Assembly: GCA_964385425.1 (NCBI GenBank) | Contig: CAYLOQ010000001.1 | Span: 1,411-65,410, forward strand | DNA: 64,000 nt | DNA from: Candidatus Woesearchaeota archaeon | GTDB lineage: Archaea; Nanobdellota; Nanobdellia; Pacearchaeales; GW2011-AR1 | Reading direction: 5' to 3' | Shown here: piece by piece, positions 3,292 through 54,123 of the stretch | Layout of the letters: each line of letters starts with the position of its first letter | How positions within the stretch are numbered: the first letter of the stretch is position 1 | The notes under the pieces: generated by a model | The model's database searches: none | What the model was told of the DNA's origin: nothing | What the model saw: only the letters and a program-made list of their open reading frames with translations | Made by a program: the position numbers and the translations under genes

Positions 3292-4287
3292 TCACCTAGT
3301 TAATTTTTTTAAAGCTGAATATTCTTTGATCAATAAATCAATGGTTGGCCTTAGATTCCCTTTTGTTTGATACTCTTGTAAGGATTCATAATATTGTCTT
3401 TGATTTCTTAGATCAATATTTACTGGAGGAAAGTCATTTTTAAGTAAGATATTATTCAGCAACAACCTCCCAACCCTACCATTCCCATCAGCGAAGGGGT
3501 GTATATTTTCAAATTGGTTATGAACAACAGATGCTAATACGAGTGCAGGGTATCTTGATCTATTTTTATTATACCATCTGATAAGTTCATTAAGTAAAGA
3601 ATTTATTCTTGATTGAGGAGCTCCAAAATGAATTATATTCCCATAGCCATCTCTAACAACAACTTCTTGTCCTTTAATTCTGAATTTGCCTGCAAAATCT
3701 TTTGAATTTTTAAAAACAATTTTATGTAAATCTAAAATAAATTTTATTGATATATGTTCCCCTGTTTTTCTTATAAATTTAATAGCATCATTCACACCAT
3801 AAGTTTCTGCTATATCTTGCTTTGATTTTTTTGGCCATTTTCCCTTCTCCAAGATATCTTTTACTTCTTTTTTTGTTATTTCACTACCTTCTATTGCATT
3901 AGTATTATACGAAAAAAGCTCTGAAAAAGTTCTCCATTGTTCTTCCGATAAATGGATTATTCTTAATTTCTGACTCTTTTCTAGATTTTCAATCAGTTTT
4001 ATTTCTTTTTTTGATAACGGTGTTTTAAGAGGATCTTTAATTATTTTATATTGTTCAATTTCCTCGAGAATTATTTTTTCTGCTTTATCTAGCCTTCCTT
4101 TTAACTGTTCTTCATTTATATTTTTTCCTAGAAACTTCCTTATTTTATTTACTTTTCCATCTTCTCTAAAAGAATGTGCTAAATAATATTTTATTCTGTT
4201 TCCTTCCTTTCTCTTCTCGACATACATAACAACAAATAGGTGACTACATATATAAATCTTTCTATTGTATTGTCTACATACGCCCAC
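3292..4287 (-). CDS. Fic/Doc family protein (AMPylation-type Fic domain)
   Basis: Canonical Fic motif HPFADGNGRVGRLL. The real start is probably the internal Met near 4227 (MYVEKRK...), because the longest ORF overlaps the upstream repeat motif. Confidence 0.8.
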   Translation of the reverse strand: MGVCRQYNRKIYICSHLFVVMYVEKRKEGNRIKYYLAHSFREDGKVNKIRKFLGKNINEEQLKGRLDKAEKIILEEIEQYKIIKDPLKTPLSKKEIKLIENLEKSQKLRIIHLSEEQWRTFSELFSYNTNAIEGSEITKKEVKDILEKGKWPKKSKQDIAETYGVNDAIKFIRKTGEHISIKFILDLHKIVFKNSKDFAGKFRIKGQEVVVRDGYGNIIHFGAPQSRINSLLNELIRWYNKNRSRYPALVLASVVHNQFENIHPFADGNGRVGRLLLNNILLKNDFPPVNIDLRNQRQYYESLQEYQTKGNLRPTIDLLIKEYSALKKLTR

Positions 4288-4293
4288 GCCGAG
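4280..4293. repeat. Copy 3 of the motif ACGCCCACGCCGAG
   Basis: Upstream of the Fic gene. A TATA-like TTTATATAT box lies about 25 nt further toward the gene. Confidence 0.65.
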
Positions 4294-4333
4294 TGCTATG
4301 GGGTGTAGGACTTCGACTCCCTGTTAGGGAATC

Positions 4334-4347
4334 ACGCCCACGCCGAT
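4334..4347. repeat. Copy 4 of the motif (ACGCCCACGCCGAT variant)
   Basis: 40 nt from copy 3, between the Fic and pentapeptide genes. Confidence 0.6.
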
Positions 4348-4431
4348 AGTAGTTTGGGAGTAGTATAAGAGTGTTATAGTTGGAGAATTTTAATCCCTCC
4401 ATAGCTCAATGGTTCTGTATTAACCACTTAA

Positions 4432-5106
4432 CTATTCTTCACGAAAATCAAATTCTGGTGTAATGGCCTTTAATATAATCTTTTTTTCCCTATTCGTTAC
4501 AATAGTTTTTCTATACCCCCTATCTTCAAACTCACCCTCTCCAAATATTGCCGCTTGTATCCAGGGATTATCCCATAAACCTACCGATCCTCTAAGATCG
4601 GCCCCGCCAAACCTTACTCCATAGAGATTCGCATCTGTAAAATCTGCTTCTCTTAGATCAGCTCCATAGAGCTGAGCTTCACGGAGTTCTGTCTTTCTAA
4701 GACTTACTCCCCTTAGATCAGCCATGTGAAGAGTTACTCCTTCAAGATTTGCTAAACTAAGATCAGCCCCTTGAAGCCTTGCTCCTTTAAGATTAGCCTG
4801 ATAAAGCCTTGCTCCTTTAAGATCCGCTCCTTCAAGATTTGCATTTACCCCCCTTAAATAAGGCATATGAAGATCTCTTGCAATTAAACCTTGAAAATTA
4901 GAGTCTTCTATTGTTATTGGGTTCTCTCTGAAATAATCATTAATTAAATACTCTCTTAATACTCTAAAGCTCGGATGTCCACTTAAATTTAAATTCCTTC
5001 CCACTCTTCTAGAGAAATCTCTTCTTCCACTCAATATCCGCATAATTTCATCTGCAGTTATTGGTCTTAATTCAACACTGGTTTCTGTTTGTTCCATAAT
5101 TCCCAC
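4432..5106 (-). CDS. Pentapeptide repeat protein
   Basis: Tandem A(D/N)LxG pentapeptides, e.g. ADLKGARLYQANLKGARLQGADLSLANLEG... Confidence 0.8.
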   Translation of the reverse strand: MGIMEQTETSVELRPITADEIMRILSGRRDFSRRVGRNLNLSGHPSFRVLREYLINDYFRENPITIEDSNFQGLIARDLHMPYLRGVNANLEGADLKGARLYQANLKGARLQGADLSLANLEGVTLHMADLRGVSLRKTELREAQLYGADLREADFTDANLYGVRFGGADLRGSVGLWDNPWIQAAIFGEGEFEDRGYRKTIVTNREKKIILKAITPEFDFREE

Positions 5107-5155: not shown

Positions 5156-5249
5156 AATAATACACTTTTGCATATCTAAGAGGTGTACTTTTGTGCCTCT
5201 TTAAATGACTAAATGAATAATGTTTAAATAATTTTGTATAAAAATAAAT

Positions 5250-8006
5250 TTATCTATATGTTACTTTTCTTATTTTATAATGTTTCTTAATCTTTTCCCT
5301 TTTAATTTCATTTTTTAGAATCATCCTGTTTAATTTTTGCTGCATTTTTGATGATTTCTTATCTTCATAAAATCTTTTATTAGAATAATCCTGCCCAAAC
5401 CTTATTTCTCCACGGATATTAAGAGATTTGAAAAGGACAATTATCATTAAAACAATAAACCCTATTAACAAAATTAATTTAGTGAAACTCCCAAATAATA
5501 TTGATGAATTTTCTTGAGTATTAATGTTATTTGATAGGATTTCTATAAGGAAAGAAGAGCCATAATATATTGAAATGATTAATGCAATTATTGAAACCAA
5601 AGAAATTATGATTATGAAAACTGTTTTTATGATTCCTCCAAAATTTGACTTATGATAATTGTATGGTTCTCTCTTCCTTTTCATCACTGAAATTATTATA
5701 AAAGTAGCTATTGCCAATAAAGATATGATTCCAATAAATAAAATAGGAATTTTTCCTTTAGGACCAAATGGAAAATATTCTCCTATATCAGGAATTCCTA
5801 TAATTCCTCCTGTTATTGATGGTGTATCTCCTTCATTATCTATTACTCTACCCCCACCAGAACTACTAGCACCACTTATGGTAAAGGTGTCAAAGAATTT
5901 ATCAGTTCTACTCCCTAAATTATAATATCCTGCTTCACATTGGAAAATATATGATTGAGTTGCTATAAATGTAGAAGGAACAAGAATTGCTTTATTTACC
6001 TTAAGAAGTGTCCTGTTAATCATCTGATTAAAATTAAATGAGTTATAATTATTAACTCCATCATTTAAATAACAAGTAAAATCAACTTCTTTTTCAACAA
6101 CCTGAGAGTCCTCTACTTGTGCAGATATTGAGCAAGTCATTTCGCTTCCTGAACTTGCTTGGGCAGGGCAATCAACCGAAAGATGGAAAGTCCCTGTTTT
6201 GGATTCTACTCCTTCAAGAGCAGAAGCTTGTCTTTGTTGGACTTGTAAATTTAAATCACTTGAATATCTACATGAATCTGAATTATTTACTATTATTGTG
6301 AAAGTATTATATGGTTCTACATCTGCAAATCCAATTAAAGTCATTCTATTGGTTTCTTCAAAGAAAGAAACATCTACTTCAGAAGTTCCTGCGTGTTTAA
6401 AATAAGGTATTGTAATTATATCATTTATTGTGCTTGAACTTCCTGCATCAGTTTCAATTCTTTTTTCTATACATCCTGCTATAACATCTCTATCTGTATT
6501 TTCAAAACAATATCTTGCTATAAATTTTGTTTCGTCTATTCCAAAATAATCATAAGTTATATTTACCTCCAATTCATTACAAGCACTAATTGATGAATCA
6601 AATGCACTTGTAGATATATTCACAACATCAATTATTTTAATATAGGGTGTTCCAACTTCATGCCCATAATAATTAAATTCATCTGATTCTAACTCTAAAT
6701 CTTGATCAAAATCTTCTAAATGTAAATGAAAATTAATATCAAAATCATTCCCTCCTACCACATGTGTAGGTAATAAAAACTCCTCTGAACATCTTTCAAC
6801 TACGCCCTCATCAATTTGTGGTTTTACAGAAGTCCTCATGATCACACTTTCTCCTTGTAATGTTTCCCCTGTGTCTAAACTTATTGGGAAAAAATGTTGT
6901 TCTAAGGTATCATCATCAAAACTTACTTCATTCACAAAAATAAACTTTTCTTCTGTGAAAGTATTATTTAATAATATACATAATGATGCAGGTTTTCCAC
7001 CAGTTAAAAATCCTTGACCATTTGTAGTTTTATTTCCTTCTACAGAATTATTGAAAGTACCCCAAGAAATATCTTCTTGGTTTATTCTTGTTGGTCCATC
7101 TGTTATTTGAATTTTTCCACCGAATTCATCTTTTAAATAAACAGCAGGGTACATCCCTTGACTTGCAGTAAAATCATCATGGAATCCTGTAGCGTTAGCC
7201 CATTTTTTATTTATCATAAAATCATTTAAATCATCAATTAAAAATCCCCTAGTTCCCTCCCCTGAAGAACCCTCTGCTGAGTTAGAACATTTATTGTCAT
7301 TCCCTGTTGGACAAAAACAATTAATATCTGTTAGATATTGAACCCCTGCTTTAAAATGGGCATCATCTATTTCAAAATCTACATCTAAATCTCCATTATG
7401 ATTTGATATTTCTTCTATTCCTGAAACAATAGTATTCCCACCAATTGTTTCTATATCGATTCTACAAGAAGCACCAGCAGTTCCAATTTCTGTTCCGTTT
7501 TTTACTTTTGCAGAAATTGCTAAAGTTGTTCCAATGAAGTTTTGAGTGCTTATTACAATCTCTTCTATTAATAAATCACTTCCTGTTGCAGCATTTATTG
7601 TTGCATTACTTTGTCCTGTTAAACCTCCTCCACCAGATAGTGTTGCATTAAGAACATTTCCATAAACAGATATATAAGAAGAATTAATTACGAAAGATTC
7701 AAAGAATTCATTATTTGGAGATGTAGTTGAACTTGGAGTTGTGCCTGTTGAAGTATCTACCACATGACCTGTCGCATTTGTCCAATTCACAGTATATGCT
7801 TGATTTTTCTCATTTCCTGTAGTTATTTCCATTTCTAAAGTCGCAGTTGAACCTTCAACATAGACTTCAGAATCTAAAACTGCCGTTGAAGCAGAAACAA
7901 AATTTATTAAGAATATAAATGAAAACAAAGATATTCCTAAAAGTAGGATCACAAATTTAGTTTTCATTTTTACCCCCCTCCCAATAATGTAATTTTGCTC
8001 TACCAA
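5250..8006 (-). CDS. Large secreted/surface protein of about 900 aa with an N-terminal signal peptide, three C-terminal TM helices and a basic cytoplasmic tail
   Basis: Probable start at the MKTKFVILLLGISLF... Met near 7967. The protein is Thr/Ser/Asn-rich with many N-x-S/T sequons. The C-terminus has hydrophobic segments followed by a K/R-rich tail, the same topology as the giant protein at 42624-53513. Confidence 0.6.
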   Translation of the reverse strand: MVEQNYIIGRGVKMKTKFVILLLGISLFSFIFLINFVSASTAVLDSEVYVEGSTATLEMEITTGNEKNQAYTVNWTNATGHVVDTSTGTTPSSTTSPNNEFFESFVINSSYISVYGNVLNATLSGGGGLTGQSNATINAATGSDLLIEEIVISTQNFIGTTLAISAKVKNGTEIGTAGASCRIDIETIGGNTIVSGIEEISNHNGDLDVDFEIDDAHFKAGVQYLTDINCFCPTGNDNKCSNSAEGSSGEGTRGFLIDDLNDFMINKKWANATGFHDDFTASQGMYPAVYLKDEFGGKIQITDGPTRINQEDISWGTFNNSVEGNKTTNGQGFLTGGKPASLCILLNNTFTEEKFIFVNEVSFDDDTLEQHFFPISLDTGETLQGESVIMRTSVKPQIDEGVVERCSEEFLLPTHVVGGNDFDINFHLHLEDFDQDLELESDEFNYYGHEVGTPYIKIIDVVNISTSAFDSSISACNELEVNITYDYFGIDETKFIARYCFENTDRDVIAGCIEKRIETDAGSSSTINDIITIPYFKHAGTSEVDVSFFEETNRMTLIGFADVEPYNTFTIIVNNSDSCRYSSDLNLQVQQRQASALEGVESKTGTFHLSVDCPAQASSGSEMTCSISAQVEDSQVVEKEVDFTCYLNDGVNNYNSFNFNQMINRTLLKVNKAILVPSTFIATQSYIFQCEAGYYNLGSRTDKFFDTFTISGASSSGGGRVIDNEGDTPSITGGIIGIPDIGEYFPFGPKGKIPILFIGIISLLAIATFIIISVMKRKREPYNYHKSNFGGIIKTVFIIIISLVSIIALIISIYYGSSFLIEILSNNINTQENSSILFGSFTKLILLIGFIVLMIIVLFKSLNIRGEIRFGQDYSNKRFYEDKKSSKMQQKLNRMILKNEIKREKIKKHYKIRKVTYR

Positions 8007-8163
8007 CAGGCCTAATTCTAATTAATTTTGCCCCCTTTAATTCTGCAAGAACGACGGCAACAGTGTTCCTAGAAATTTTTAAACCTCTTGCAATATCAAT
8101 TATTGTAAGTCCGTCTGTATTTTTTCTTAGAAGACTCTTAACTAATTCACCTTTTGTTTTCAT
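7957..8163 (-). CDS. Small winged-helix (MarR/ArsR-like) DNA-binding regulator
   Basis: 68 aa; LTIIDIARGLKISRNTVAVVLAELKGAKLIRIRPVG is HTH-like. It overlaps the start of the downstream surface-protein gene, so the two are probably co-transcribed. Confidence 0.5.
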   Translation of the reverse strand: MKTKGELVKSLLRKNTDGLTIIDIARGLKISRNTVAVVLAELKGAKLIRIRPVGRAKLHYWEGGKNEN

Positions 8164-8166
8164 TGT

Positions 8167-8266
8167 GCGTTAACGCTTAGTTTTATAAGTTATCTTTAAA
8201 ACTTTGTTTTATAAGTCATTTTTAAAGTTTAATGATATAAGTTATCTTTATTAATTATCTTTAATG
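8167..8266. promoter_or_regulatory. Palindrome GCGTTAACGC plus three to four tandem 25-26-bp iterons (TTTTATAAGTTATCTTTAAA) upstream of the wHTH regulator gene
   Basis: Direct repeats at 8181-8202, 8207-8227 and 8233-8253, with a partial fourth at 8254-8266. A 10-bp perfect palindrome lies at 8167-8176. Confidence 0.5.
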
Positions 8267-8390
8267 TTTATTATTGGTGCACAATAGTTTATAAATGTTT
8301 TTAATCGGTTTATGATATCAAAAAGATTTCAATAAAGCCCAGAAAGAGCGTTGGGATAATTTTAAAAAGACTTAACCCAGCTTATTTTTT

Positions 8391-8906
8391 ATGGATAATC
8401 GTAATGGAGAAGTTAGTCCTCTTGAAATAATTAGTGGGCAAGGAAGTATGGAAACCCCCGAATCATTTAGAGATAAGGCGAGGGGGTGGGTTGTAGATAC
8501 ATCCATAGCAGTTCTATGGAGTAATCTTGTTTTTGCACCAGGTGATTATGTTTTAGGTGGTTTGTGGGGGGATGAATTTGTTAAACAAAGAGTAGGAATG
8601 AGTTTGTTTAATTTGGCGTTTGGTGGGGTATTTGGAAAATTTAGAAATTATTGGACAAAAAATGTAATGAAGGCCACACCAAATAGTTCAAGATTTTACA
8701 AGGCAGTTAGTGATACCACAGCAGGTGCTATTTTTTATGGTCCTATTTATGTTGGACTTATTAAATCCCATGGGGCTTCATGGGAAGAAACATTTGCAGC
8801 ATTAGGGGGAGGACTTCTAACAGCCGCAATCACAGGTAGGCCCTATGGTTTGTGCCAAGATAAATGGAGAAAATTATTTGGAGTTAGGCCAGCTCTAGAA
8901 GAATAG
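8391..8906 (+). CDS. Hypothetical protein, paralog of 21771-22325
   Basis: Shares aligned blocks (K.R.GM..F, ASWEE/ASLEE...GGL, PYG...WRKLF/PF.EFWRTKVF) with the ORF at 21771-22325. Confidence 0.5.
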   Translation: MDNRNGEVSPLEIISGQGSMETPESFRDKARGWVVDTSIAVLWSNLVFAPGDYVLGGLWGDEFVKQRVGMSLFNLAFGGVFGKFRNYWTKNVMKATPNSSRFYKAVSDTTAGAIFYGPIYVGLIKSHGASWEETFAALGGGLLTAAITGRPYGLCQDKWRKLFGVRPALEE

Positions 8907-9576: not shown

Positions 9577-9996
9577 TTATTTACTTCTTTCAGAAACATT
9601 ACAATCAACATCAACATATCTTACTTCTACTTTAAATCCCAATTCTCTCAATTTATGTATTGTATTCTTTTGTTGATTATCCAGATGGGAAGAATTTGAT
9701 TTTACTTCCACAAAAGAAATTTCCTTTGTGTCTTGATCGATACAAACTAAATCAGGAAAACCAAGAATATTATCCTTTATTATTTTGATAACTTCTTTAA
9801 TTCTCTTTGTATCAATTTCCTCCCAAATCATCATATTTTGGATTCTTCCAATCATGGTTGTATTTATTGGGCTTATAACTTTATCATTAGTAAAATCAAC
9901 CCTCACAACATTTTGATTTTCTTCTTTCTTAAGTTTTGAAACAATATAATCTTCTGCAATTCTTCCTAAACTTGTTGTTGATATATCTTCATTCAT
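9577..9996 (-). CDS. Hjc-like PD-(D/E)xK nuclease (Holliday-junction-resolvase / restriction-endonuclease fold)
   Basis: N-terminal G..AE..V motif, then PDLVCIDQD...VEVKS, which matches the PD-x(n)-(D/E)xK catalytic core of the Hjc family. It has a longer insert than canonical Hjc. Confidence 0.5.
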   Translation of the reverse strand: MNEDISTTSLGRIAEDYIVSKLKKEENQNVVRVDFTNDKVISPINTTMIGRIQNMMIWEEIDTKRIKEVIKIIKDNILGFPDLVCIDQDTKEISFVEVKSNSSHLDNQQKNTIHKLRELGFKVEVRYVDVDCNVSERSK

Positions 9997-42366: not shown

Positions 42367-42627
42367 ATGAAAAAAACAGTAATTTTACTGTCAATTTTAA
42401 TGCTAACCTTAGCAAGTATTATATTTTTAACGGCAGAGCAGGACCCACCTTACACACATTCATGGACAAAAGCCATTTGTGATGAAAATAACCACTGTCA
42501 GGACCACATAATTTTCTGTAAAGGAGAAAAATTAGTCAGCACAACTCCAATAACAGGGGCTACAGTTCAACTCTCCAAGAATTGGGAAGATCCAAGAGAT
42601 GAAGAAATAAGAGAGAAATTTTGTTAA
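42367..42627 (+). CDS. Small secreted Cys-containing protein
   Basis: Signal peptide MKKTVILLSILMLTLASIIFL. 86 aa. Confidence 0.4.
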   Translation: MKKTVILLSILMLTLASIIFLTAEQDPPYTHSWTKAICDENNHCQDHIIFCKGEKLVSTTPITGATVQLSKNWEDPRDEEIREKFC

Positions 42628-45600
42628 GAAATATCAAATCCATAACCTTCTTTTTTATCAGACTCTTCATCAGGCTTTTCTTCTGATTCCCCTGGCTTTT
42701 CTATCTTTTCCCCTTCTTCACCAATTAATTCTTCCATAGCCTCTTCATCAGATTCTAATTCTGGGAGTTGAGGCTTATATGTTTCTTGTTTTTCTTTAGT
42801 TTCTCCAGAATCTGTTTTTCTAAAGGCTTTTCTATATAATCTTTTTATTGTTGCAGGAGCCTTCATGTATTGGTCCACCTCTTCTTTTATTCTTTTCTTC
42901 TCTTCTGTATTGGATTCTTCTAAATAATCTATCAAATCCCTGATTAAAACTTTAGCTTCCTTTTCTATCTCATTAATATTGTAATAAAGGTTGGATTTGG
43001 TTGTCTTAAACTCTATATGTGCATTTATTATGTCTCTCAGAGTTTTCAGGTGTCTCTTAGTAAACTTCCCTGGTTCAACGAATGCTTTTTCAAAATCACG
43101 TAAAAGAAATTCTTGAGATTTTTTTCCGAAAATCTTTTTTAATAAATAAAAGGTGTTCCTATGTATTCTTTCTATAGCTGCTCCTGCCCTCCTAGAAATT
43201 ATTCTCTCTTCTTTTGCTAATTCTTTTTCACCCTTTGATATAAATAACCTTAATGGTCTAGTAAGCTTTCTAATAAGGGATGTGAAAGAAAATCCTTTTT
43301 CAACTCCCTTCCTAATTTTCTTAATCGGCTTCTTAATTTCTTTAACAGGTTTCCTCCCAACCTCCCAAAATGCTTTGATTTTTTGATCAGCACCCAATCC
43401 TAAGATATCCTGTCTCTCTGATACTCTTCTGATGGCCTTTAGTAAAAATCTATCTAACTCTTTTGCCTGTCTTTTAAATCTTTTATAGAATCTATTAATG
43501 GAAATGTAGATAGCATTTAAGATTCTCTTCACCTTAAATCCTATCCTCAACCTTCCAAGCTCTATTCTTAATTTTTGTTTCGGTTTTTTAACCGGTTTAA
43601 ACTTTTTCTTCTTTTCAATATGTGTTCTCTCCCCCCTTAATTTAAATTTAAATAGACCAGATAGGTCAAATTTAACAGGGGTTATTTCTAGATGTTTGAG
43701 TCCCCTAAAGAGAATGATTGTTCTCTTTCTTATTGCTCTTGAAAATATTTTAATTGCCCTAAACACCTTTCCACTGAATCTAGAAAGTGCTATAACCACA
43801 TTCTCAATAAATCCAGAGATAGAACTAATAATCCTGATAAATATCTTCTTAAATTGTCCCCTTTGTCTAGGCCTTTCAACTAATGACTTTATTTTTGGTT
43901 TTACCTTAATCACTCTCCTTGCTTTAAGTCTTTTTCTCTCTCTCTTCAACCGTTCAGTTTCTCTTCTTCTTGCTCTCCTCAATCTATTAATCGCTCCTCT
44001 TTCTGCCATCCAGGATTTGAATCTCTGGAAAAAATTGGTTTTATTTATTATAAATACTATGATGAAAAATACAAACAAAACAAAAAGTGTTTTTAGGAAA
44101 TAATTAAAAGCGGTGCTCTTGACTATCGATGATAAAAAGGAAAATATATTCAAGAAATAAGTCAGAACTCCAAGTACAACAAATAAAGAAAATGCTAAAA
44201 CAGAAATCTTATGTTTTTTAATCCACCTTGTCTCTCGTACGAGTCCTACCTTTATCTTCTTCCTTTCCAAATAGAATATGAGGAAGGTTATGATGACAGC
44301 TAAGATAATCAAAGTAATAATCGCATAGACCCTAATACCTTCAACGTCTTTCGATGTTATTATCGCAATACCCCCCTCAACCCTTACCTCAATAGTTCTT
44401 TCTGATCTTGCAGAATAACTCTCATGATCGACTTCAACAACAAAAGTATAAATTCCAGATTCTATACTAGATGGTAAGAAGATCCTTGTTGTTTCTGTTT
44501 TTTCTTCAAAACTACCGAGATAAATAGTATCCAAACCAGAGGTTACTATTTCTCCATCTTTCTCAATCCAAAAATTAACCACAACGTCTGCATTAATTTC
44601 AGCTACACCTTTTATAAAATAGACAAACTCAAAGAATTCTCCAAGTCTTACAGGAGATTCAAAATCAATTATCTTAACATCAAATAGTTTTATACATTGA
44701 TAATTAAAACAAGCTTCATCAGCACTACAGGAACTATCATTGAGACACTCGACACTGCTTGAGCTTCCACCTCCACCACCCGCATCATCAACATCATCAC
44801 CCGCATCATCGTCTACAGGTGTTTCTTCTGCAGAATAAACAGTGAACCCAGTTACATTAAAGCTTAAAGTGCCTCCAGAATAACTGTTCTGCGTACAAAT
44901 TGATGAGGAACAAAGAGATCCATCCCTCAAAATCCTCGGGGTTGTAAATGTTAAATTATATAGGGAGAGTGTTGCACTTTTGTTGAAGTTGGGAAGGGCT
45001 GTAGAATTTAATTCAATTCTGTTTGATGAAATATTTACATGAATATCTAAATCAACCTTGTTGTTTGTTAGGTTAAGGTCGTCTGTTACATTAATAGCTT
45101 CATTAAAATTTATTTTCCCTGCATTTATCCTTTCTAAAATAATGCCACTCAAATTCTGTAAATCTTCATGAGATGTTTGATTAAAGGCTGTTGATAGTCC
45201 CTTTAAAAGACCACCAAATTCGTCAAAAATTACAGAGAATTTAGTTATATTAACTGTAAAGGTGACATTTTTTACAGTTTCTCCGTTACTATTATTTGCA
45301 TATAATTTAAGAGTATGCTGCCCTTCTGTAGTATTAAAAGTTGTATTTCCAGTTATCGTTGTATTCGGTGGTATATTATCAATATTATAAAACACAAAAT
45401 CCTCTAAACTAGCAACATACTCTAATAAAAGAGACTCGTTTGTAATATAAGTTTCATTTTCTGGCTTAATAATTGTTAAATTTGGGGCAACGAGAGAAAC
45501 ATTTCTTGTTTCTGTTTGGTTGGTGTTTCCGGCAATATCAATTACATAAGCTTTGTAATCATATGTTCCAGCATTTAAGTTAGTGAAATTATTATATAAA

Positions 45601-48600
45601 CTGTATAAACCGGCATTATATGAGGCATTAATTTCTGCTTGTGATAAGGCTCTATTGTGAATACGGACTTCGTCTATTGAACCATTGAAATATCTTGAAA
45701 AACTAGGTAAGTTTCCAATTAATAAATCACTTGTCGATGTAATTGTAGTTGGAATATCTCCAGTAAAAGCTAATGGTTCATTAACCCCATTTACATATAT
45801 TTTTAATTGGTCTGCATCTGCAACTTGGGTACCATCATATACTGAAATTATATGATACCAGTTTCCTACAGCAATAACATTATTATCTGTTGTTCCAAAA
45901 TCACTACCAGCACCTATCTGGGTTAATATTTTTCCAGTAACACCAGTTATTTCTACAAAAAATCCATTACTGCCATCCCACCAACCTAAAAAGTCTTTTT
46001 GATGTATTAAGGCATCTGGTTTGACCCAAAACTCCGTAGTTATTTGGTCTTCGTTTGAAAGAGTTAAACCTGTAATATTTATAGAATCATCAACCCCATC
46101 AAACTCTATTCCTTTACCATATTTTCCATCAATAGTTGTGTTTGAAGAAAAACTAATCATAGTTCCATCATTCCCATAACTTGAATTATCATATACTGTT
46201 CCATTGCTTAAAACAGTTTCAAAATTCCACCATCCCACTAAACTATAATTCCAGTCAATAAATGCGGAATGGTCATTAGTATCAGAAGTTGAAACATTAA
46301 CATAAACCGAATTTTCTTTTATAGATAATCCATTTTCAAGTGTCGGGGTTACAAAGTCTATCAATGGGTTAATTGAATCAACAAAGAAAGTTACAGAAGA
46401 TGAATTCTCATTTCCACTCGTGTCATTTGCATAAATCCTCCATGTCTGACTTCCCTGGCCAGAATCAAGACCTGTAACATTAACACCACAAGAAATTGTG
46501 GTATTTGTGGCTCCGCCGTCTATCGAATACCAACAAACATCTAGGGCTTGATTATCAACAGCAGTATAATTCAGCTGTGTTTGGACAGAGGTGTAAGAAA
46601 TGTTTTGTGGCTCAACTAAAGAAACGTTTGGGGGAGTTAAATCCACCTCGAGAACATTAACCCACCATATTTCTATTGCAGATGTATAGTTTGTATTTCC
46701 TCCATAAATGGTTGTTATGTTAAATAATCCAAAGTCTGTGAAGTTGGTTAAGTTACTCAAGGGAGAAGTTCCTTGATTGATTAAGGTTCCGTTATTATAC
46801 AATTCAATAGTCCCTGTTCCTGTATCTAAAGTTGAATTCAAATAAATTTCTTCATTTTGATTAATTGTTATATTTGCCCTTGAATTATTTAAGTATGTAA
46901 ATACAACTCCTGTTGCTTGGTTGACAGTTAAAATCTCTGACACAGAAGCAGAAGTGTAATTTATATTTCCTGTGGTGTTAAAAGTATAATTATATGTTCC
47001 CACTCCAAGAGTTGCTGTTTCTGAATTGCCAACAGAAATGCTGTCTCTATATAGGGTGCAGGTTAACTGGGAAGGGCAACCTGTTCCATTCGCTGTTGTC
47101 TCTGTCAGATATGTTACAGTATTGCTCGGAGTTATTGACAGGCTTATTGAAGGTGTTCCCTGATCTATCGTATAACTTCCATTTTCAGTACTATTTATAT
47201 TTCCACTAGTGTCATTTGCATACCATCTGTAATTGTAAGTTCCAACTGAAAGACCTGTTAGTGTAAGATTATAAATATTTCCTGTTAAATTAACAGCAGT
47301 GTAATTTGTTCCATTAAAATCTATAATCACTGTATCAACAACCCTATTATCTGTTATTGTTGCATTGAATTCATAAATTGTTCCCTCTGAATAAACAGCC
47401 GGGTCGCTCGGGTTTTCTGTGAGGGAAGAAACACCTGGATTTGTTTCATCAGGGGCTTCTGTCACATTTACATACCAGGTTTCAAAACTGCCTGTAAAGT
47501 TCTGACTTTCCTCGTAAATTCCAGTTATATTAAAAATCCCTACAGAACTAAATTGTGTAAAGTTACTCAAAGGACTTGCGCCTTGATTTATCAGAGTTCC
47601 AGCATTGTATAACTTCAAAGTTGCTCCAGAATCTCCTGTTGCAGTTGTGGCATTAAGATAAATAAAAGAATCCTGAACAATTGTAACATTCCCGTCTGTT
47701 ACATTTAAGGTCAGGTTTACCTCACTACTTATTTTTGTAATAGTTACAAATCTTGTTATCGAGGCAGAGCTATGGTTCTGATCTCCGCTTGAAACAGCTG
47801 TATAATTATAATACTCGACCCCTAAAGTTACAAACACATTATTATCTCCTGTGACATCGGTGGCATTTCTGTACAAGGTAACCACTCCAAATTGTGTTGC
47901 TGCGCTTGCATTTGTTTGAGTATTATATGGTGCTATTTGATTTGCTGCAGAGCCATTGATTAATAGAGTTATGTCTCCTGTTGCATTACTTATGGTATAT
48001 GTCTGAATAGAAGTTGAATTAACATTATTCACAGTGTCATTTGCATACCACCTGTAATTGTAAGTTCCTGCTGCTAAATCTGAAATAGTAAAATTATAGA
48101 CATTCCCAAACAAATTAGTAGGAGTATAATTTGTTCCATCAAATTCAATTAAAACAACATCTAGGTTGTCGTCAGTTATTGTTGCATTAAATTCATAAGT
48201 TGTTCCTTGAACATACATCGTAGGGTCACTCGGGCTTTCCGTTAAACTATCCAGTGAGGGATTTGTCGTATCTAAAGTTACACTTACAGTTGCTAAATCT
48301 GCTTCATTGCTGAATGTATCATTAGCTGTGGCGTTGTAGAAATAAAGTCCGTCACTCAATCCAGTGAAGTTGATAAAATTCGGAGAAGTTGAAGTTAGAG
48401 AAGAATTTATCTGTTCATCTGAAGAATTGTAGAGCCTGATTAAAATTTTATCTAACTTAGGGTCTGATGCTGTTACATTTATTTCTATAAAGTTCTGTGA
48501 ATAATTTCCTGTTGCAGTTATTGGAGAAACATAATTCATTGCCGGTGGCCCTGTGTCTGTTGTGACTGTTCTAGTTACAGTTGAATTTTCATTGCCAAGA

Positions 48601-51600
48601 GTATCATTGACAGTAGAATTAAAGAAATATACTTCATCTGGAAGTTCTGTGAAATTAGAAAAGAAGGGTGAAGTTGATGATGTATTTTGTGTAACTAAAC
48701 CTGTAGAATTATACAAGAAGATTGTAATTATATCTACACTATCTGTTGCAGTTACATTAACTTGTATATAATCTCTGGTTAATGAAGAATCGTTTGCTTC
48801 TGTAGGAGCTACAAAGTCTATGTTTGGGGGTATTGTATCAATATTTATTTCCCTAGTTTCAGTCTGATTTGTGTTTCCTGCTATATCATTGGCTGTTGAA
48901 AAATAAGTATAAGTTCCAGCATCTAAACCATCTGTTGAATTCTTTGATTGATTCGTGTATAAAATCCATTTATCTGTGTCATATTTTCTTAAATTTGAGA
49001 AGTATTGTTGTTGGATTTCTGTTGCAGAAAGTGAACGATTCCAGATACGGACTTCATCTATTGAACCATTGAGTTTCTGTGAGCCATCCCCAATATCTCC
49101 AATAAAAACATTATTATCACTTTGTACAATAGCTGCAGCAGACCCACTGTTTTCCTCAATCCCATCAATATAAATTCTCAATGTTGAACCATTGTGTGTC
49201 CCAACAACATGATACCATCTCACTGTTGTTGCTAAGGTAGAAGATAATAAGACATTAGTCCCCTCCCATACTGCAAAGGCATTGTTTGCACCGCTTCTTT
49301 TTAATAATGCAAAACCACCACCCCCACCACTTTTTCCAACTATTGTATCTTGTGCTAATTCTTCCAGAGAATCAAAGTTTACCCAAGCTTCCAGGGTAAA
49401 TTCAGTAAGGTCTATATCACTAACATTTATAAAATCATTAACACCATCAAAATCAAAAGCCCCGTTGTATCTTCCACTTGAATTAAAAGTTGCACCGCTT
49501 ACAGTTCCGTCATTTCCATATTTACTTAAATCAACAACAAAAGTATCATTTTCACCCAAGGCACTAATATTATCAAAATTCATCATTAAAACCAGAGAAT
49601 CGTTATAAATTGTATAATTGGTTGAATTCCAGTTGAATTTGACTTCGTTTAAGTTCAATTCAGTAATTGTTACATTAATTTCTACACTTGTATTGGCAGT
49701 TGTTGTGGCATTTGGCGGTGTTGGAGATACGAATTGTATTTGAGGGTTGATCGTATCTATCGTGATGGTCCTCGTTTCTGTCTGATTTTCATTTCCAACT
49801 GTGTCATTTGCTGTTGAATTCAAATAATAATTTTCATCTGGCAAACTTGTGAAATTAACAAAAAACGGTGTGGTCGAAGATATGTTTTGTTGTACCAAGC
49901 CTGTTGAGTTATACAAAAAAATAGTTATTATGTCTAGGTTCGTGTCTGAAGCAGTTACATTGGCCTGAATATAATCTCTGGTAAGTTGGGAGTTGTTAGA
50001 TTCTGTTGGGGATACAAAATCTATATTTGGATTCGTTGTATCTACTGTAAAAAATATGGTGCTAAAGTTATCATTTCCAACAGTGTCATTCGCATAAAAA
50101 GTAATATTATGTAAACCATCTGTAAGTATTGGATGGTCACCACTTAAATTAAAGAAATTAGTAGTTGAATCGTTAGTCAGGGTCATGTTTGCTAAACCAT
50201 CAACAGATGCCAGTGCGTTGGTTAAACTTTCATCTACAGTTATGTTATAATCAATACTACCAGTTGCAAAAGTCGAATTTGTTGGAGAAATTATTGTTAT
50301 TACTGGGGGAGTTGTGTCTGCTGTTATAAGAGTAATTTTTCTCGTCTCTGTTTTATTTGTATTATTTACAGTGTCATAAATAGTTACGTTATAGAAATAA
50401 TCAACACCACTATTATTCAAACTTGTCCAGTTTATTGTTGTAATTAATGTCGTATAGGTCGTTTCATTTACTACTCCTGATCCATTGTGTAAAGCATAAG
50501 TAATATTTTTGAAATTAACTTCTGTTACAGATACATTCACAAAAACATAATCTTGATTGACAGAGGTTCCATTAGCTTCTGTTGGAGCCACAAATTCTAT
50601 CTGAGGGGGGGTTGCGTCAACACCAATTGTTCTTTCTTCAGTTTCATTTATATTTCCTACAGCATCGATAACATGGGCTTTAAAAGTATAGTCTCCATCA
50701 GCCAGGTTTGTGAAGTTGTTGGAGAGCCCGTAAGTTCCTGCCTGGTATGAGGCGTTAACCTCTTCTGGTGATAAAGTACGATTAAAAATCATGACTTCAT
50801 CTATAAAACCGCCCGCCCAATCTAAAACCTCTGGAGAACCCCCCACAGTTATATTTATTTCGGGAGCATAAAGGGTTCCAAACCCATAAGATGAATTACT
50901 ACTTTCCAAAACACCGTTTACATAAAGGCGTGTCTCTGTTGTGTTATAGGTTCCAACCAAATGATACCAGTTGTTGTTACTAAGTCCACTACTAAAAAGA
51001 CAACTTCCAATAGCAGGATTACCGGAGTATAAGCACCACCAGACAGGCCAAGGATTTTCTCCATCAACAAATAAGCTATATGACCTGTACCCAGTAGTGT
51101 GATTCTGATACCTATTTACTAAATCATGATTAGATCCCCCAACAAGACCTGTTGGCTTGAACCATATAGAAACAGTAAAAGATACATTTCCCATCCCAAC
51201 TGTTGAATCGTTCCCGAAATTAACATAATTATCTAAATCTGCCCTATTAAACTCTAATGCCTTACCTCTTTTACCCTCTGTTATATTATTAGTCCCGAGA
51301 TTTCCATTAAACGTTCCAAATTTATCATAAGTAGAATTATCAAATACTCCTGTCGTATTAAAGAAATCAAAACTCGCCCATAATTCTAAACTCTTGTTCC
51401 AATCTATAAATGCTGAATGTTCTGAAGCGTCGCTTGTTGAAACATTCACATAAACATAATCTTCGGTTTGGTTTGTGTTGTTGTCTGGGGTTGGAGCCAC
51501 AAAATTTATGTTTGGGTTTGTAGTATCAATTGTAAATGTTCTGTTTGTGTCTGTGAAATCCTCATTTCCTAAGGTATCATTACCCCATGCTGCCCAGACA

Positions 51601-53891: not shown

Positions 53892-54123
53892 GTTTTTTTC
53901 CCACGTATTTTAAATATAAGTTATAAGTTACCTGGTTAGGACTACTAGCATCTATAGCTACTTCCCTTTCAATCTCATAATCTCTATTCCCTGCAAAACA
54001 ACCATGAACTAAGATCATCAAATCTTCTGGTAAATCGAAAACCTTAATAATATCTCCTTTTCCAATATCTCCTTCTTCAACAAGACTTTCTATTTTACTT
54101 TTTATTTGATCAACCCTATTCAT
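53884..54123 (-). CDS. Hypothetical small protein in the ribosomal cluster
   Basis: 79-aa ORF translationally coupled between rps28e and rpl24e. I recognise no motif. Confidence 0.4.
   Translation of the reverse strand: MNRVDQIKSKIESLVEEGDIGKGDIIKVFDLPEDLMILVHGCFAGNRDYEIEREVAIDASSPNQVTYNLYLKYVGKKHA

Follow-up and report, generated by a model that had tools for sequence, protein, structure and literature searches.

A stand-alone winged-helix protein and a 13-bp operator array that probably autoregulate a surface-protein operon in DPANN archaea

The window analysed here, a contiguous stretch of 64 kb, is DNA of a DPANN archaeon. It encodes eIF2-gamma and aIF5B and is thus archaeal, and the labels on homologous loci read Woesearchaeota, Pacearchaeota or Nanoarchaeota. 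Since the host is an archaeon, the region has to be read by archaeal promoter rules. On the minus strand, the gene for a stand-alone winged helix-turn-helix (wHTH) protein of 68 aa (7957–8163), present as a single copy in the window, is followed by a gene for a large surface or membrane protein (5250–7967) and preceded by an array of short repeats and a TATA box. A Pfam profile scan identified AlaE-like, VRR-NUC, pentapeptide-repeat and Fic proteins as neighbours of the array and the wHTH gene. An Rfam scan of the window returned two tRNAs only, with no match in the array and leader region.

The surface-protein gene most likely starts at the ATG at position 7967 (MKTKFVILLLG...), a start at the TTG at 8006 being unlikely. 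It would then encode 905 aa and overlap the wHTH gene by 11 nt, so that the overlap of the two co-oriented genes claimed in the original prediction stands, while the length of 918 aa given there for the surface protein is probably too great. A putative Shine-Dalgarno sequence for this gene, GGGAGGGGGG (7973–7982, minus strand), lies inside the C-terminal codons of the wHTH gene, which read W-E-G-G. Directly after the stop codon there is a T-run, TTTATTTTT (5240–5248, minus strand), a possible oligo-T terminator of the archaeal type, with which an operon of two genes would end; the gene beyond it, whose ATG is at 5097, is preceded by a separate TTTAAA at −29. Hydropathy analysis of the surface protein indicated an N-terminal hydrophobic signal, three to four C-terminal hydrophobic helices and a lysine-rich tail. 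The ectodomain is mostly β-structure in an AF2 model of low confidence (pLDDT 51, from an alignment of six sequences). Neither Pfam nor NCBIfam assigned a family at cutoff to this protein, only five homologues of it were found in the database, and its density of N-glycosylation sequons is 1.7 per 100 aa, as compared with 5–10 in the partner proteins at other loci. The start and stop codons of the gene pair overlap in 41 of 46 loci, an SD-like motif is found within the 3′ end of the wHTH gene in 38 of the same number, and a large, N-terminally hydrophobic protein comes next in nearly all. The pair is thus supported as a conserved operon, as originally proposed, in which translation of the two genes is probably coupled.

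The AF2 model of the wHTH protein (pLDDT 74.8) consists of three helices (H1–H2–H3; residues 4–14, 21–28 and 32–44) and a β-hairpin wing (strands 48–51 and 57–60). A Foldseek search with this model retrieved Csa3, MepR, MexR, PapI and SmtB with query-normalised TM-scores of 0.64–0.80, the E-values being only about 1e-2, and the model thus places the protein, at the level of fold, in the winged-helix DNA-binding superfamily. Assignment to a sequence family did not succeed: Pfam gave many weak HTH matches, none of them at cutoff, with the MarR profiles (PF12802 and PF01047) reaching 22.5 bits against 27 for MarR_2, the best match, and 14.1 against 24.6 bits for MarR, and the ArsR/SmtB model NF033788 of NCBIfam scored 19.4 bits against a cutoff of 55. 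A PDB sequence search yielded nothing at E < 0.1. MarR proteins are about 140 aa long, and their N- and C-terminal helices build a dimer interface around the wHTH domain; the present protein, with 68 aa and only H1–H3 and the wing in its model, does not share this architecture. No obvious dimerisation module can be recognised in the 66–68 aa of these wHTH proteins, although their presumed sites are dyad-symmetric. The homologue search returned 588 sequences, of which the best 120 are 71–100% identical to the query, and the recognition helix I-S-R-N-T (S31, R32, N33, T34) is invariant among the aligned homologues. Some homologues bear the name 'DNA invertase Pin-like'; an invertase-type switch was rejected because the wHTH protein has no catalytic domain.

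The repeat array upstream of the wHTH gene comprises nine units (8165–8282, minus strand). The proximal operator, unit 9 (8165–8178), reads AAGCGTTAACGCAC, ends 1 nt before the ATG and holds the perfect palindrome GCGTTAACGC (8167–8176), which had been noted from the outset and is the sole match in the window at up to one mismatch, 0.11 being expected by chance. The palindrome itself includes an ATG, by which gene callers are misled into false upstream starts. Seven interior units of 13 nt (units 2–8, 8179–8269) connect it to the distal operator, unit 1 (GTGCACCAATAAT, 8270–8282), a site with a conserved left arm, GTGCA, and a degenerate right one. The interior was delimited by register and by TRF, which reported one repeat at 8176–8250 (period 26, 2.9 copies, 77% matches, score 94) and, as a second reading, another at 8177–8263 (period 13, 6.7 copies); the window has no other strong tandem repeat outside coding sequence. 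Furthermore, the 21-mer TTTAAAGATAACTTATAAAAC occurs twice at up to three mismatches, against an expectation of 0.05. The tandem direct repeats of about 25 bp that had been described are therefore real, but the true unit is shorter: the 26-bp 'iteron' is an amplified two-unit block in which A-type units (aagtTTTAAAgat) alternate with B-type units (aacTTATAAAact), and the basic period is 13 nt. Because the array reaches 8282 and the TATA box lies at 8288–8295, the limit of 8266 set originally for the region cuts off unit 1 and the promoter. No further convincing operator site was found across the 64-kb window, the best candidate being GAATTAATGC at 2300.

The putative TATA box of the operon, TTTATAAA (8288–8295, minus strand), is conserved in related arrays and separated from unit 1 by 5 nt. 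The repeats, lying between this box and the start codon and not upstream of a bacterial promoter, are thus operator or leader sequence. In this genome TTTAWA starts at −29 or −30 from the ATG in 20 of the 52 ORFs of the window, a leaderless geometry. When the same geometry of a TATA box at −29 is applied to the wHTH operon, transcription is predicted to start at about 8265–8267, some 29 nt downstream of 8295, and unit 1 would accordingly occupy about −16 to −4. The operator would then follow the TATA box closely and cover the start, a position known from autoregulated archaeal repressors. The predicted leader is about 100 nt long and has no SD sequence before the wHTH start; since leaderless mRNAs are the norm in this genome, the true start may differ.

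For comparison, 70 related loci were collected, and 39 arrays were parsed in register; because related genomes are counted, the effective sample is smaller than the counts given below. The large majority of orthologous loci share one layout ahead of the wHTH gene, namely a TATA box, a spacer of 4–6 nt, a distal half-degenerate palindrome (GTGCA...), 0–9 degenerate interior units, the proximal palindrome AAGCATTAATGCAC and the ATG. A TATA-like hexamer precedes unit 1 by 6–8 nt (equal to 4–6 nt after the TTTATAAA octamer) in 35 of the 39 parsed arrays. These contain 2–11 units, seven of them consisting of the two palindromes alone. Across the 39, the first-unit profile has the consensus GTGCATTAATGaT and 15.6 bits, and the last-unit profile has the consensus AAGCATTAATGCAC and 19.8 bits, this unit ending 1 nt before the ATG in 22 arrays. 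The profile of the 90 interior units amounts to 6.4 bits in total, most conserved at T7 (83%), A8 (92%) and T13 (82%). At least one GCATTAATGC-like site is found within 200 nt upstream of the gene in 69 of 71 loci, and two or more in 45. The motif density in those 200 nt is 5.0 per kb, as compared with 0.063 per kb in the other 410 kb of the loci (about 79-fold). The palindrome of the original prediction is thereby supported as a conserved, operator-like site. The distances between sites are exact multiples of 13 in 57 of 72 cases, against about 5.5 expected (binomial p about 1e-49, related genomes being among those counted), and a further five deviate from 13n by exactly one base.

The number of units, which it had been proposed to compare among strains, indeed differs between close relatives: nine in the window against four, four and eight in those with wHTH proteins 88–93% identical to that of the window (L067 and L068, L069, and L070, respectively). 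Variation in repeat number between strains, a hallmark of phase-variable promoters, is thus found between these loci and the window. L070 contains a 26-nt duplication that, being perfect, must be recent. At the other extreme, highly diverged interiors such as those of L020 and L027 (eight units) are still exactly 13n+1 nt long, which implies that indels have long been purged from them. In metagenomes, the perfect double palindrome GCATTAATGCNNNGCATTAATGC was matched eight times, never together with a wHTH homologue. Two of the matches were inspected and have unrelated surroundings, one of them a YajC/SecD-like locus; the scan was uninformative as to a regulon. The same pattern had no match in viral contigs.

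The sites co-vary with the adjacent protein. Where the wing position in G-x-AKL is methionine, 11 of 13 sites have altered centres (AATAAT, ATTATT or AATATT), whereas the same centres occur in 7 of 110 sites of loci with K, R or I in the wing (Fisher p = 1.4e-9 versus Met). The nearest neighbours of Met-wing proteins are not other Met-wing proteins. Furthermore, loci with a different helix (TTRHT) bear different boxes.

Taken together, it appears probable that this DPANN-specific, highly conserved stand-alone wHTH protein autoregulates the operon of its own gene and the surface-protein gene through an expandable operator array. The wHTH gene would be co-transcribed and translationally coupled with the large surface-protein gene, and its product would bind, probably as dimers, the two terminal palindromes (consensus GTGCATTAATGCAC), which bracket a variable number of degenerate sites, all in 13-bp register. 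The distal site would take up the gap from the TATA box to the predicted start of transcription, and the others would cover that start and the whole of the short leader, leaving 1 nt free ahead of the ATG. Occupied sites would hinder recruitment or escape of RNA polymerase, and the regulator and the surface protein would for that reason be under negative autoregulation. The interior units may have arisen by amplification of 13- or 26-bp blocks, and they would extend the stretch of DNA that is bound and probably adjust cooperativity. They could also be passive, 6.4 bits representing weak conservation. Less easily reconciled with the scheme is the period of 13 bp, which does not complete an integral number of turns of the helix and in this differs from the helically phased multi-site operators of archaeal Lrp proteins (PMC2995911). 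The identity of the binder, the sign of the regulation, the position of the start and the stoichiometry of binding are what we infer in this scheme. As regards autoregulation by the wHTH protein, it is well supported by the comparative evidence, with binding as the step that we infer, while the phase- or condition-dependent control of the surface gene that had also been suggested is speculation. A bolder reading appears doubtful, namely that the protein is a dedicated, clade-wide master regulator of the main surface (S-layer or host-attachment) protein in DPANN of the Woesearchaeales and Pacearchaeales type, that it polymerises along the DNA, with one dimer per 13 bp, into a spiral filament not helically phased and nucleating at the terminal palindromes, and that gain and loss of 13- or 26-bp units would form an evolvable, contingency-like dial for the amount of surface protein that is made.

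An explanation by which only the terminal palindromes function, and the interior repeats reflect neutral replication slippage in an AT-rich spacer, is considered unlikely. The interior units do differ from lineage to lineage and carry only 6.4 bits, seven parsed arrays do without them, and both the duplication in L070 and the unequal numbers in close relatives are what slippage would produce; duplication of 13- or 26-bp blocks would moreover keep the register automatically. It is harder to reconcile with slippage that the diverged interiors of L020 and L027 have kept a length of exactly 13n+1 nt, that most interior units preserve the central T7 (83%) and A8 (92%), and that the site spacings are mostly exact (57 of 72, plus the five off by one base). 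Action at the level of RNA, with units 2 to n in the 5′ leader controlling translation of the regulator by hairpins or by a protein bound near the AUG, is improbable. It would fit a transcription start upstream of units 2–9, as promoter geometry suggests, the position of the last palindrome 1 nt from the ATG in 22 of 39 arrays, and the wHTH start without an SD sequence. The leader, however, folds no better than shuffled sequences (z = −1.0; 37 of 200 shuffles at least as stable), the region is without an Rfam match, unit 1 precedes the predicted start, conservation extends to specific bases beyond what pairing alone requires, and in fold the protein is similar to the wHTH domains with which MarR and ArsR proteins bind DNA.

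It is very improbable that the sites serve a different factor or the basal machinery, for instance that the interior units which look like TATA boxes in the lineage of the window (TTTAAAGA, CTTATAAAA) are extra TBP/TFB sites or multiple promoters, even though the divergent AlaE-like gene has a promoter (TTTTAAAAAGACTTA) similar to a unit. Interior units elsewhere are not TATA-like, as in L017 (aaataacataaat), the interior TTTAAA hexamers of the window are at −37 and not at the usual −29 of the genome, and a GC-armed palindrome is no TATA element; within the loci it is nearly confined to the region upstream of the wHTH gene, and its centre changes in step with a residue of the protein encoded next to it. 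The term iteron of the original prediction, if taken in its replication sense, found no support. Short contiguous repeats beside a small DNA-binding gene do recall TubR/tubC, ParR/parC and AspA, but iterons of a replication origin or partition centromere, recognised by a Rep, Orc or centromere-binding protein, were rejected as extremely improbable. No Rep, Orc1/Cdc6, ParA or TubZ family was detected among the seven flanking ORFs scanned (of those at 3.3–10 kb), the cumulative GC skew has no turning point near 8 kb, and the fixed succession of TATA box, array and ATG, together with the coupling to a surface gene, recurs in chromosomal contigs, which among the homologous loci reach up to 700 kb.

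A literature search found no prior description of this wHTH protein, its array or the module with a surface gene, which is no proof of absence. Gene regulation in DPANN archaea, most of which are uncultivated, is to our knowledge almost unexplored. Their large, fast-evolving surface proteins are thought to mediate attachment to hosts. The autoregulatory operon proposed here pairs one regulator with one operator, as predicted from sequence alone, with an explicit recognition sequence (GTGCATTAATGCAC), a strict spacing rule of 13 bp and a natural copy number of 2–11 units. Since surface proteins are predicted to be under its control, the module is relevant to the way in which these symbionts determine the make-up of their surface. 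Its contiguous 13-bp register, which differs from the helically phased archaeal operators, may reveal a different cooperative assembly of wHTH proteins on DNA.

Among known systems, the nearest structural matches are MarR and ArsR/SmtB proteins (MepR, MexR, SmtB) and the wHTH domain of Csa3, which share the fold of three helices plus a wing. The profile scores are weak (MarR_2 22.5 and ArsR 19.4 bits, below the family cutoffs), and the present protein has half the length of MarR and lacks its N- and C-terminal dimerisation helices. Centromere-type arrays, such as those of TubR with the 12-bp tubC iterons, of ParR with parC, and of AspA, which spreads from a palindrome, are likewise served by a small (w)HTH protein on contiguous short repeats with a non-helical period and variable copy number, an arrangement in which neighbouring dimers would line up along a spiral. 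Unlike these, the present arrays have no partition NTPase or tubulin gene nearby, keep a fixed promoter geometry, and lie at chromosomal loci conserved across a phylum-level clade. In contingency loci, promoter repeats vary in length at bacterial surface-protein genes through hypermutable tracts of 1–7 bp. The present arrays are similar in being tandem repeats in the control region of a surface gene with copy numbers that differ between close relatives; they are dissimilar in their units of 13 or 26 bp, in having two to three block copies, and in that the variation is known between relatives. As the register is preserved, a change in copy number would tune expression and not switch it on or off.

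The closest parallels in regulation are the autoregulated archaeal repressors LrpA from Pyrococcus furiosus, MDR1 from Archaeoglobus fulgidus and Lrs14 from Sulfolobus, which bind between the TATA box and the transcription start; LrpA and MDR1 block recruitment of RNA polymerase from just downstream of the TATA box (PMC2995911). As in these systems, the regulator gene has a putative operator of its own just below the TATA box and over the predicted start, and, as with MDR1, which heads the operon under its control, the wHTH gene comes first in its operon. Unlike LrpA, MDR1 and Lrs14, the regulator is a bare wHTH of 66–68 aa without a ligand-binding or oligomerisation domain, the array is contiguous, with 2–11 units of 13 bp reaching the ATG, and the presumed target is a surface-protein gene. 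Ss-LrpB and other archaeal regulators of the Lrp type show cooperative binding to several sites set at regular intervals within their own control regions, these sites being helically phased at whole numbers of turns (PMC2995911). The present control region likewise has multiple imperfect palindromes, with strong outer and weaker inner sites that suggest cooperative filling. It differs from that of Lrp in that its units abut with a period of 13 bp (about 1.24 turns), and in that the protein belongs to a different family, without a RAM domain.

The palindrome and the tandem repeats of about 25 bp that the original prediction placed ahead of an operon of a winged-helix regulator and a surface protein are both present upstream of the regulator gene, a 68-aa ORF called at 7957-8163(-). 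The palindrome GCGTTAACGC (8167-8176, minus strand) occurs only once in the window, and Tandem Repeats Finder reported a 26-nt unit with 2.9 copies at 8176-8250 and a 13-nt unit with 6.7 copies at 8177-8263; elsewhere in the 64-kb window, non-coding DNA had no tandem repeat with a comparable score. The period of about 25 bp corresponds to the 26-nt repeat; the basic unit, however, is 13 nt. Nine units in a 13-bp register run from 8282 to 8165(-), starting after a TATA box (8295-8288, minus strand) and a 5-nt spacer and ending one base before the ATG at 8163, and the 26-nt repeat is a block of two units, A-type aagTTTTAAAgat and then B-type aacTTATAAAact. By direct reading, in which 8/13 positions match, the A-type unit is a degraded copy of the terminal palindrome. 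Repeat copy number proved variable among relatives: those with 93%, 88% and 88%-identical regulators carry 4, 4 and 8 units, respectively, versus nine in the window, and within the 8-unit array one 26-nt stretch is perfectly duplicated, in a sequence unlike that of the window's blocks. Block copy number therefore shifts on short evolutionary time scales. A second convincing operator-like site was not found in the 64-kb window. The B-type core AACTTATA has two near-copies in GGTAACTTATAACTTATATTTAAAA at 53910-53932(-), ahead of a small zinc-ribbon ORF (MPKCVYCGKEYEFPRG...), which we take to resemble ribosomal protein L24e; this stretch is probably no more than a TATA region.

The comparison covered 66 loci encoding proteins related to the regulator, taken from contigs at one genome per species, and four loci from close relatives. 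Alignment of the upstream regions at the regulator ATG revealed one architecture. A TATA box TTTATAAA comes first and then, past a short spacer, a distal site (consensus GTGCATTAATGaT), which 0-9 degenerate interior units separate from a proximal site (consensus AAGCATTAATGCAC, 19.8 bits). The ATG follows the proximal site after 1 nt in 22 of the 39 parsed arrays and after 5 nt in six. The number of units per array ranges from 2 to 11, with 2, 3 and 4 being the commonest. In a model-free spacing test on 71 loci, sites differing from GCATTAATGC at no more than two positions were taken from the 200 upstream nucleotides; 57 of 72 pairwise distances were exact multiples of 13 (28 at 13, 16 at 26, 6 at 39, 3 at 52, 1 at 65 and 3 at 91), with about 5.5 expected by chance. 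Motif density in these 200-nt stretches exceeds that in the rest of the loci (410 kb) ~79-fold. The interior units carry a weak signal (6.4 bits) but preserve the dyad centre: of 90 units, 83% have T7 and 92% have A8. Short tandem repeats of GCATTAATGC with a 13-bp period were also seen on two unrelated metagenome contigs with no homolog of the winged-helix protein, L079 (3000-3030) and the bacterial L081 (3140-3190, between YajC-like and SecD-like genes); coincidence is the probable explanation, as 13-bp spacing was already built into the pattern searched for. The operator palindrome includes an ATG (GCATTA-ATG-CAC), which at window 8167-8176 is out of frame with the regulator; at several loci (L009, L019, L044 and L045) it gives a spurious in-frame start further upstream (MHQCTM... 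or MHRCTM...), which ORF finders pick.

Judged from sequence, the window organism is a DPANN archaeon, and bacterial promoter logic is therefore inapplicable to the array region. The AT-rich window (GC ~32%) encodes eIF2-gamma and aIF5B, and the source MAGs of the small-protein homologs are mostly labelled Woesearchaeota, Pacearchaeota or Nanoarchaeota. The motif TTTAWA starts 29-30 nt ahead of the ATG in 20 of 52 window ORFs, these genes being without a Shine-Dalgarno (SD) motif; operon-internal genes have GGAGG- or GGGGG-type SD motifs instead. Leaderless transcription, driven by a TATA box at -29, is thus the norm in the window, and the pattern points to a predominance of leaderless mRNAs in this DPANN genome.

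The regulator gene is followed on the same strand by the long surface-protein ORF, ending at 5250. A strong SD, GGGAGGGGGG (7982-7973, minus strand), precedes the ATG at 7967, and the gene is called from the equivalent start in close relatives; the surface protein is therefore 905 aa long, with an 11-nt overlap with the regulator gene. A T-run directly past its stop codon, together with the next gene's own TATA box at -29, suggests a two-gene operon. The SD at 7973-7982(-) coincides with the W-x-G-G codons (TGG GAG GGG GGT) of the regulator C-terminus, a tail that may be kept partly for this dual coding. The surface protein belongs to a small family with only five database homologs and gave no known domains in family scans; it carries a signal at the N-terminus and, at the other end, 3-4 hydrophobic helices and a Lys-rich tail, and its ectodomain may be beta-rich according to a model of low confidence (pLDDT 51). 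At locus L072 (1-3795), a 73%-identical homolog lies 18 nt past a >1100-aa protein with Laminin_G_3 and Big_13 matches, the regulator not being in that position; in some genomes the gene for this surface protein may thus come second among the surface genes of a longer operon. The operon neighbours in the window are Fic-domain, pentapeptide-repeat, divergently transcribed AlaE-like membrane protein and VRR-NUC nuclease genes, the family matches lying at 3292-5106(-), 8391-8906(+) and 9577-9996(-). Of the relatives with sequence upstream of the array, L067 and L068 are the closest; their flank there looks like it ends in a tRNA 3' end (GGTTCGAA...) and is unrelated to the AlaE-like gene, which is therefore not a conserved neighbour. 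The giant 3629-aa ORF at 42624-53513(-) is probably a further huge surface protein of a kind common in DPANN archaea.

Nearly all loci have a co-oriented gene after the regulator, its start overlapping the regulator stop in 41/46 loci (as ATGA in 32), and an SD-like motif lies inside the conserved W-x-G-G codons in 38/46. Three unrelated families (26, 8 and 8 loci) make up the partner proteins, which have in common an N-terminal hydrophobic segment, a large size (often >1600 aa), Ig-like Big_13 domains and C-terminal hydrophobic anchors; many contain 5-10 N-X-S/T sequons per 100 aa.

The small protein matched many helix-turn-helix families weakly, none in Pfam (top MarR_2, 22.5 bits, cutoff 27) or NCBIfam (top ArsR, 19.4 bits, cutoff 55) attaining its curated cutoff, and a PDB sequence search gave no match at E < 0.1. 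Its AlphaFold model (39 homologs, pLDDT 74.8) has three helices and a beta-hairpin wing, and matches generic winged-helix domains best in structure (Csa3, MepR/MexR, PapI, Rio2 and SmtB; E ~1e-2). Sequence conservation is unusually high, at 71-100% identity among the 120 best homologs listed.

Three indirect lines of evidence point to this protein as the binder of the adjacent sites. Gene and sites co-occur almost perfectly, the motif being scarce elsewhere in the loci. Recognition-helix residues S31, R32, N33 and T34 are invariant in the homolog alignment, the helix being constant where the palindrome is kept, and relatives with a T-T-R-H-T helix have other boxes, e.g. TTAGCATTATTGTTG. Furthermore, co-variation links the site centre to the wing residue of G-x-AKL: AATAAT, ATTATT or AATATT centres occur in 11 of 13 sites with Met and in 7 of 110 with Lys, Arg or Ile (Fisher p = 1.4e-9). 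The Met-wing proteins are not mutual closest relatives, although the phylogenetic signal in 58 residues is slight. The ~50%-identical T-T-R-H-T relatives (L062, L065 and L066), whose differing upstream boxes (TTAGCATTATTGTTGAGTATTGTTG) are followed by a GGGGAG-type SD, may be a sister family with altered specificity.

That the interior repeats are neutral slippage products is doubtful, as the register is exact even in highly diverged arrays. An action of the transcribed units at the RNA level is considerably less probable still, given that the leader shows no folding advantage over shuffled sequences and an Rfam search found nothing in the region. It is also unlikely that the array represents extra TATA boxes or another factor's sites, because other lineages have interior units that do not resemble TATA boxes. 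Replication or partition iterons were rejected, with no initiator or NTPase gene among the seven flanking ORFs scanned and no GC-skew turning point near 8 kb.

Winged-helix proteins that regulate their own genes through palindromic operators in the region of the TATA box and start site are already known. Undescribed in the literature searched, Pfam, NCBIfam and PDB are a stand-alone, highly conserved family of 66-68 aa, the almost obligatory pairing of its genes with those of large surface proteins throughout a DPANN clade, and a contiguous 13-bp operator array of variable copy number; a DPANN regulatory circuit thereby becomes directly testable in vitro. By the genome's -29 rule, transcription would start at ~8265-8267, placing unit 1 at about -16 to -4 and the remaining units between +1 and the ATG; in two-unit arrays the predicted leader of ~11-13 nt would hold the proximal palindrome only. 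Strong terminal sites could nucleate binding, with weak interior sites filled cooperatively, and the 13-bp period (~1.24 helical turns) speaks against looping between same-face sites and for side-by-side spiral occupancy. Cooperative binding to several sites in its own control region is known for Ss-LrpB, Lrs14 occludes its own promoter, and LrpA and MDR1 block RNA polymerase recruitment by binding just downstream of the TATA box (PMC2995911). From the predicted unit positions and these precedents, negative autoregulation of the regulator and surface-protein operon is favoured, with its sign, start site and stoichiometry all inferred; unit 1 lies just past the TATA box, as do the operators of LrpA and MDR1.
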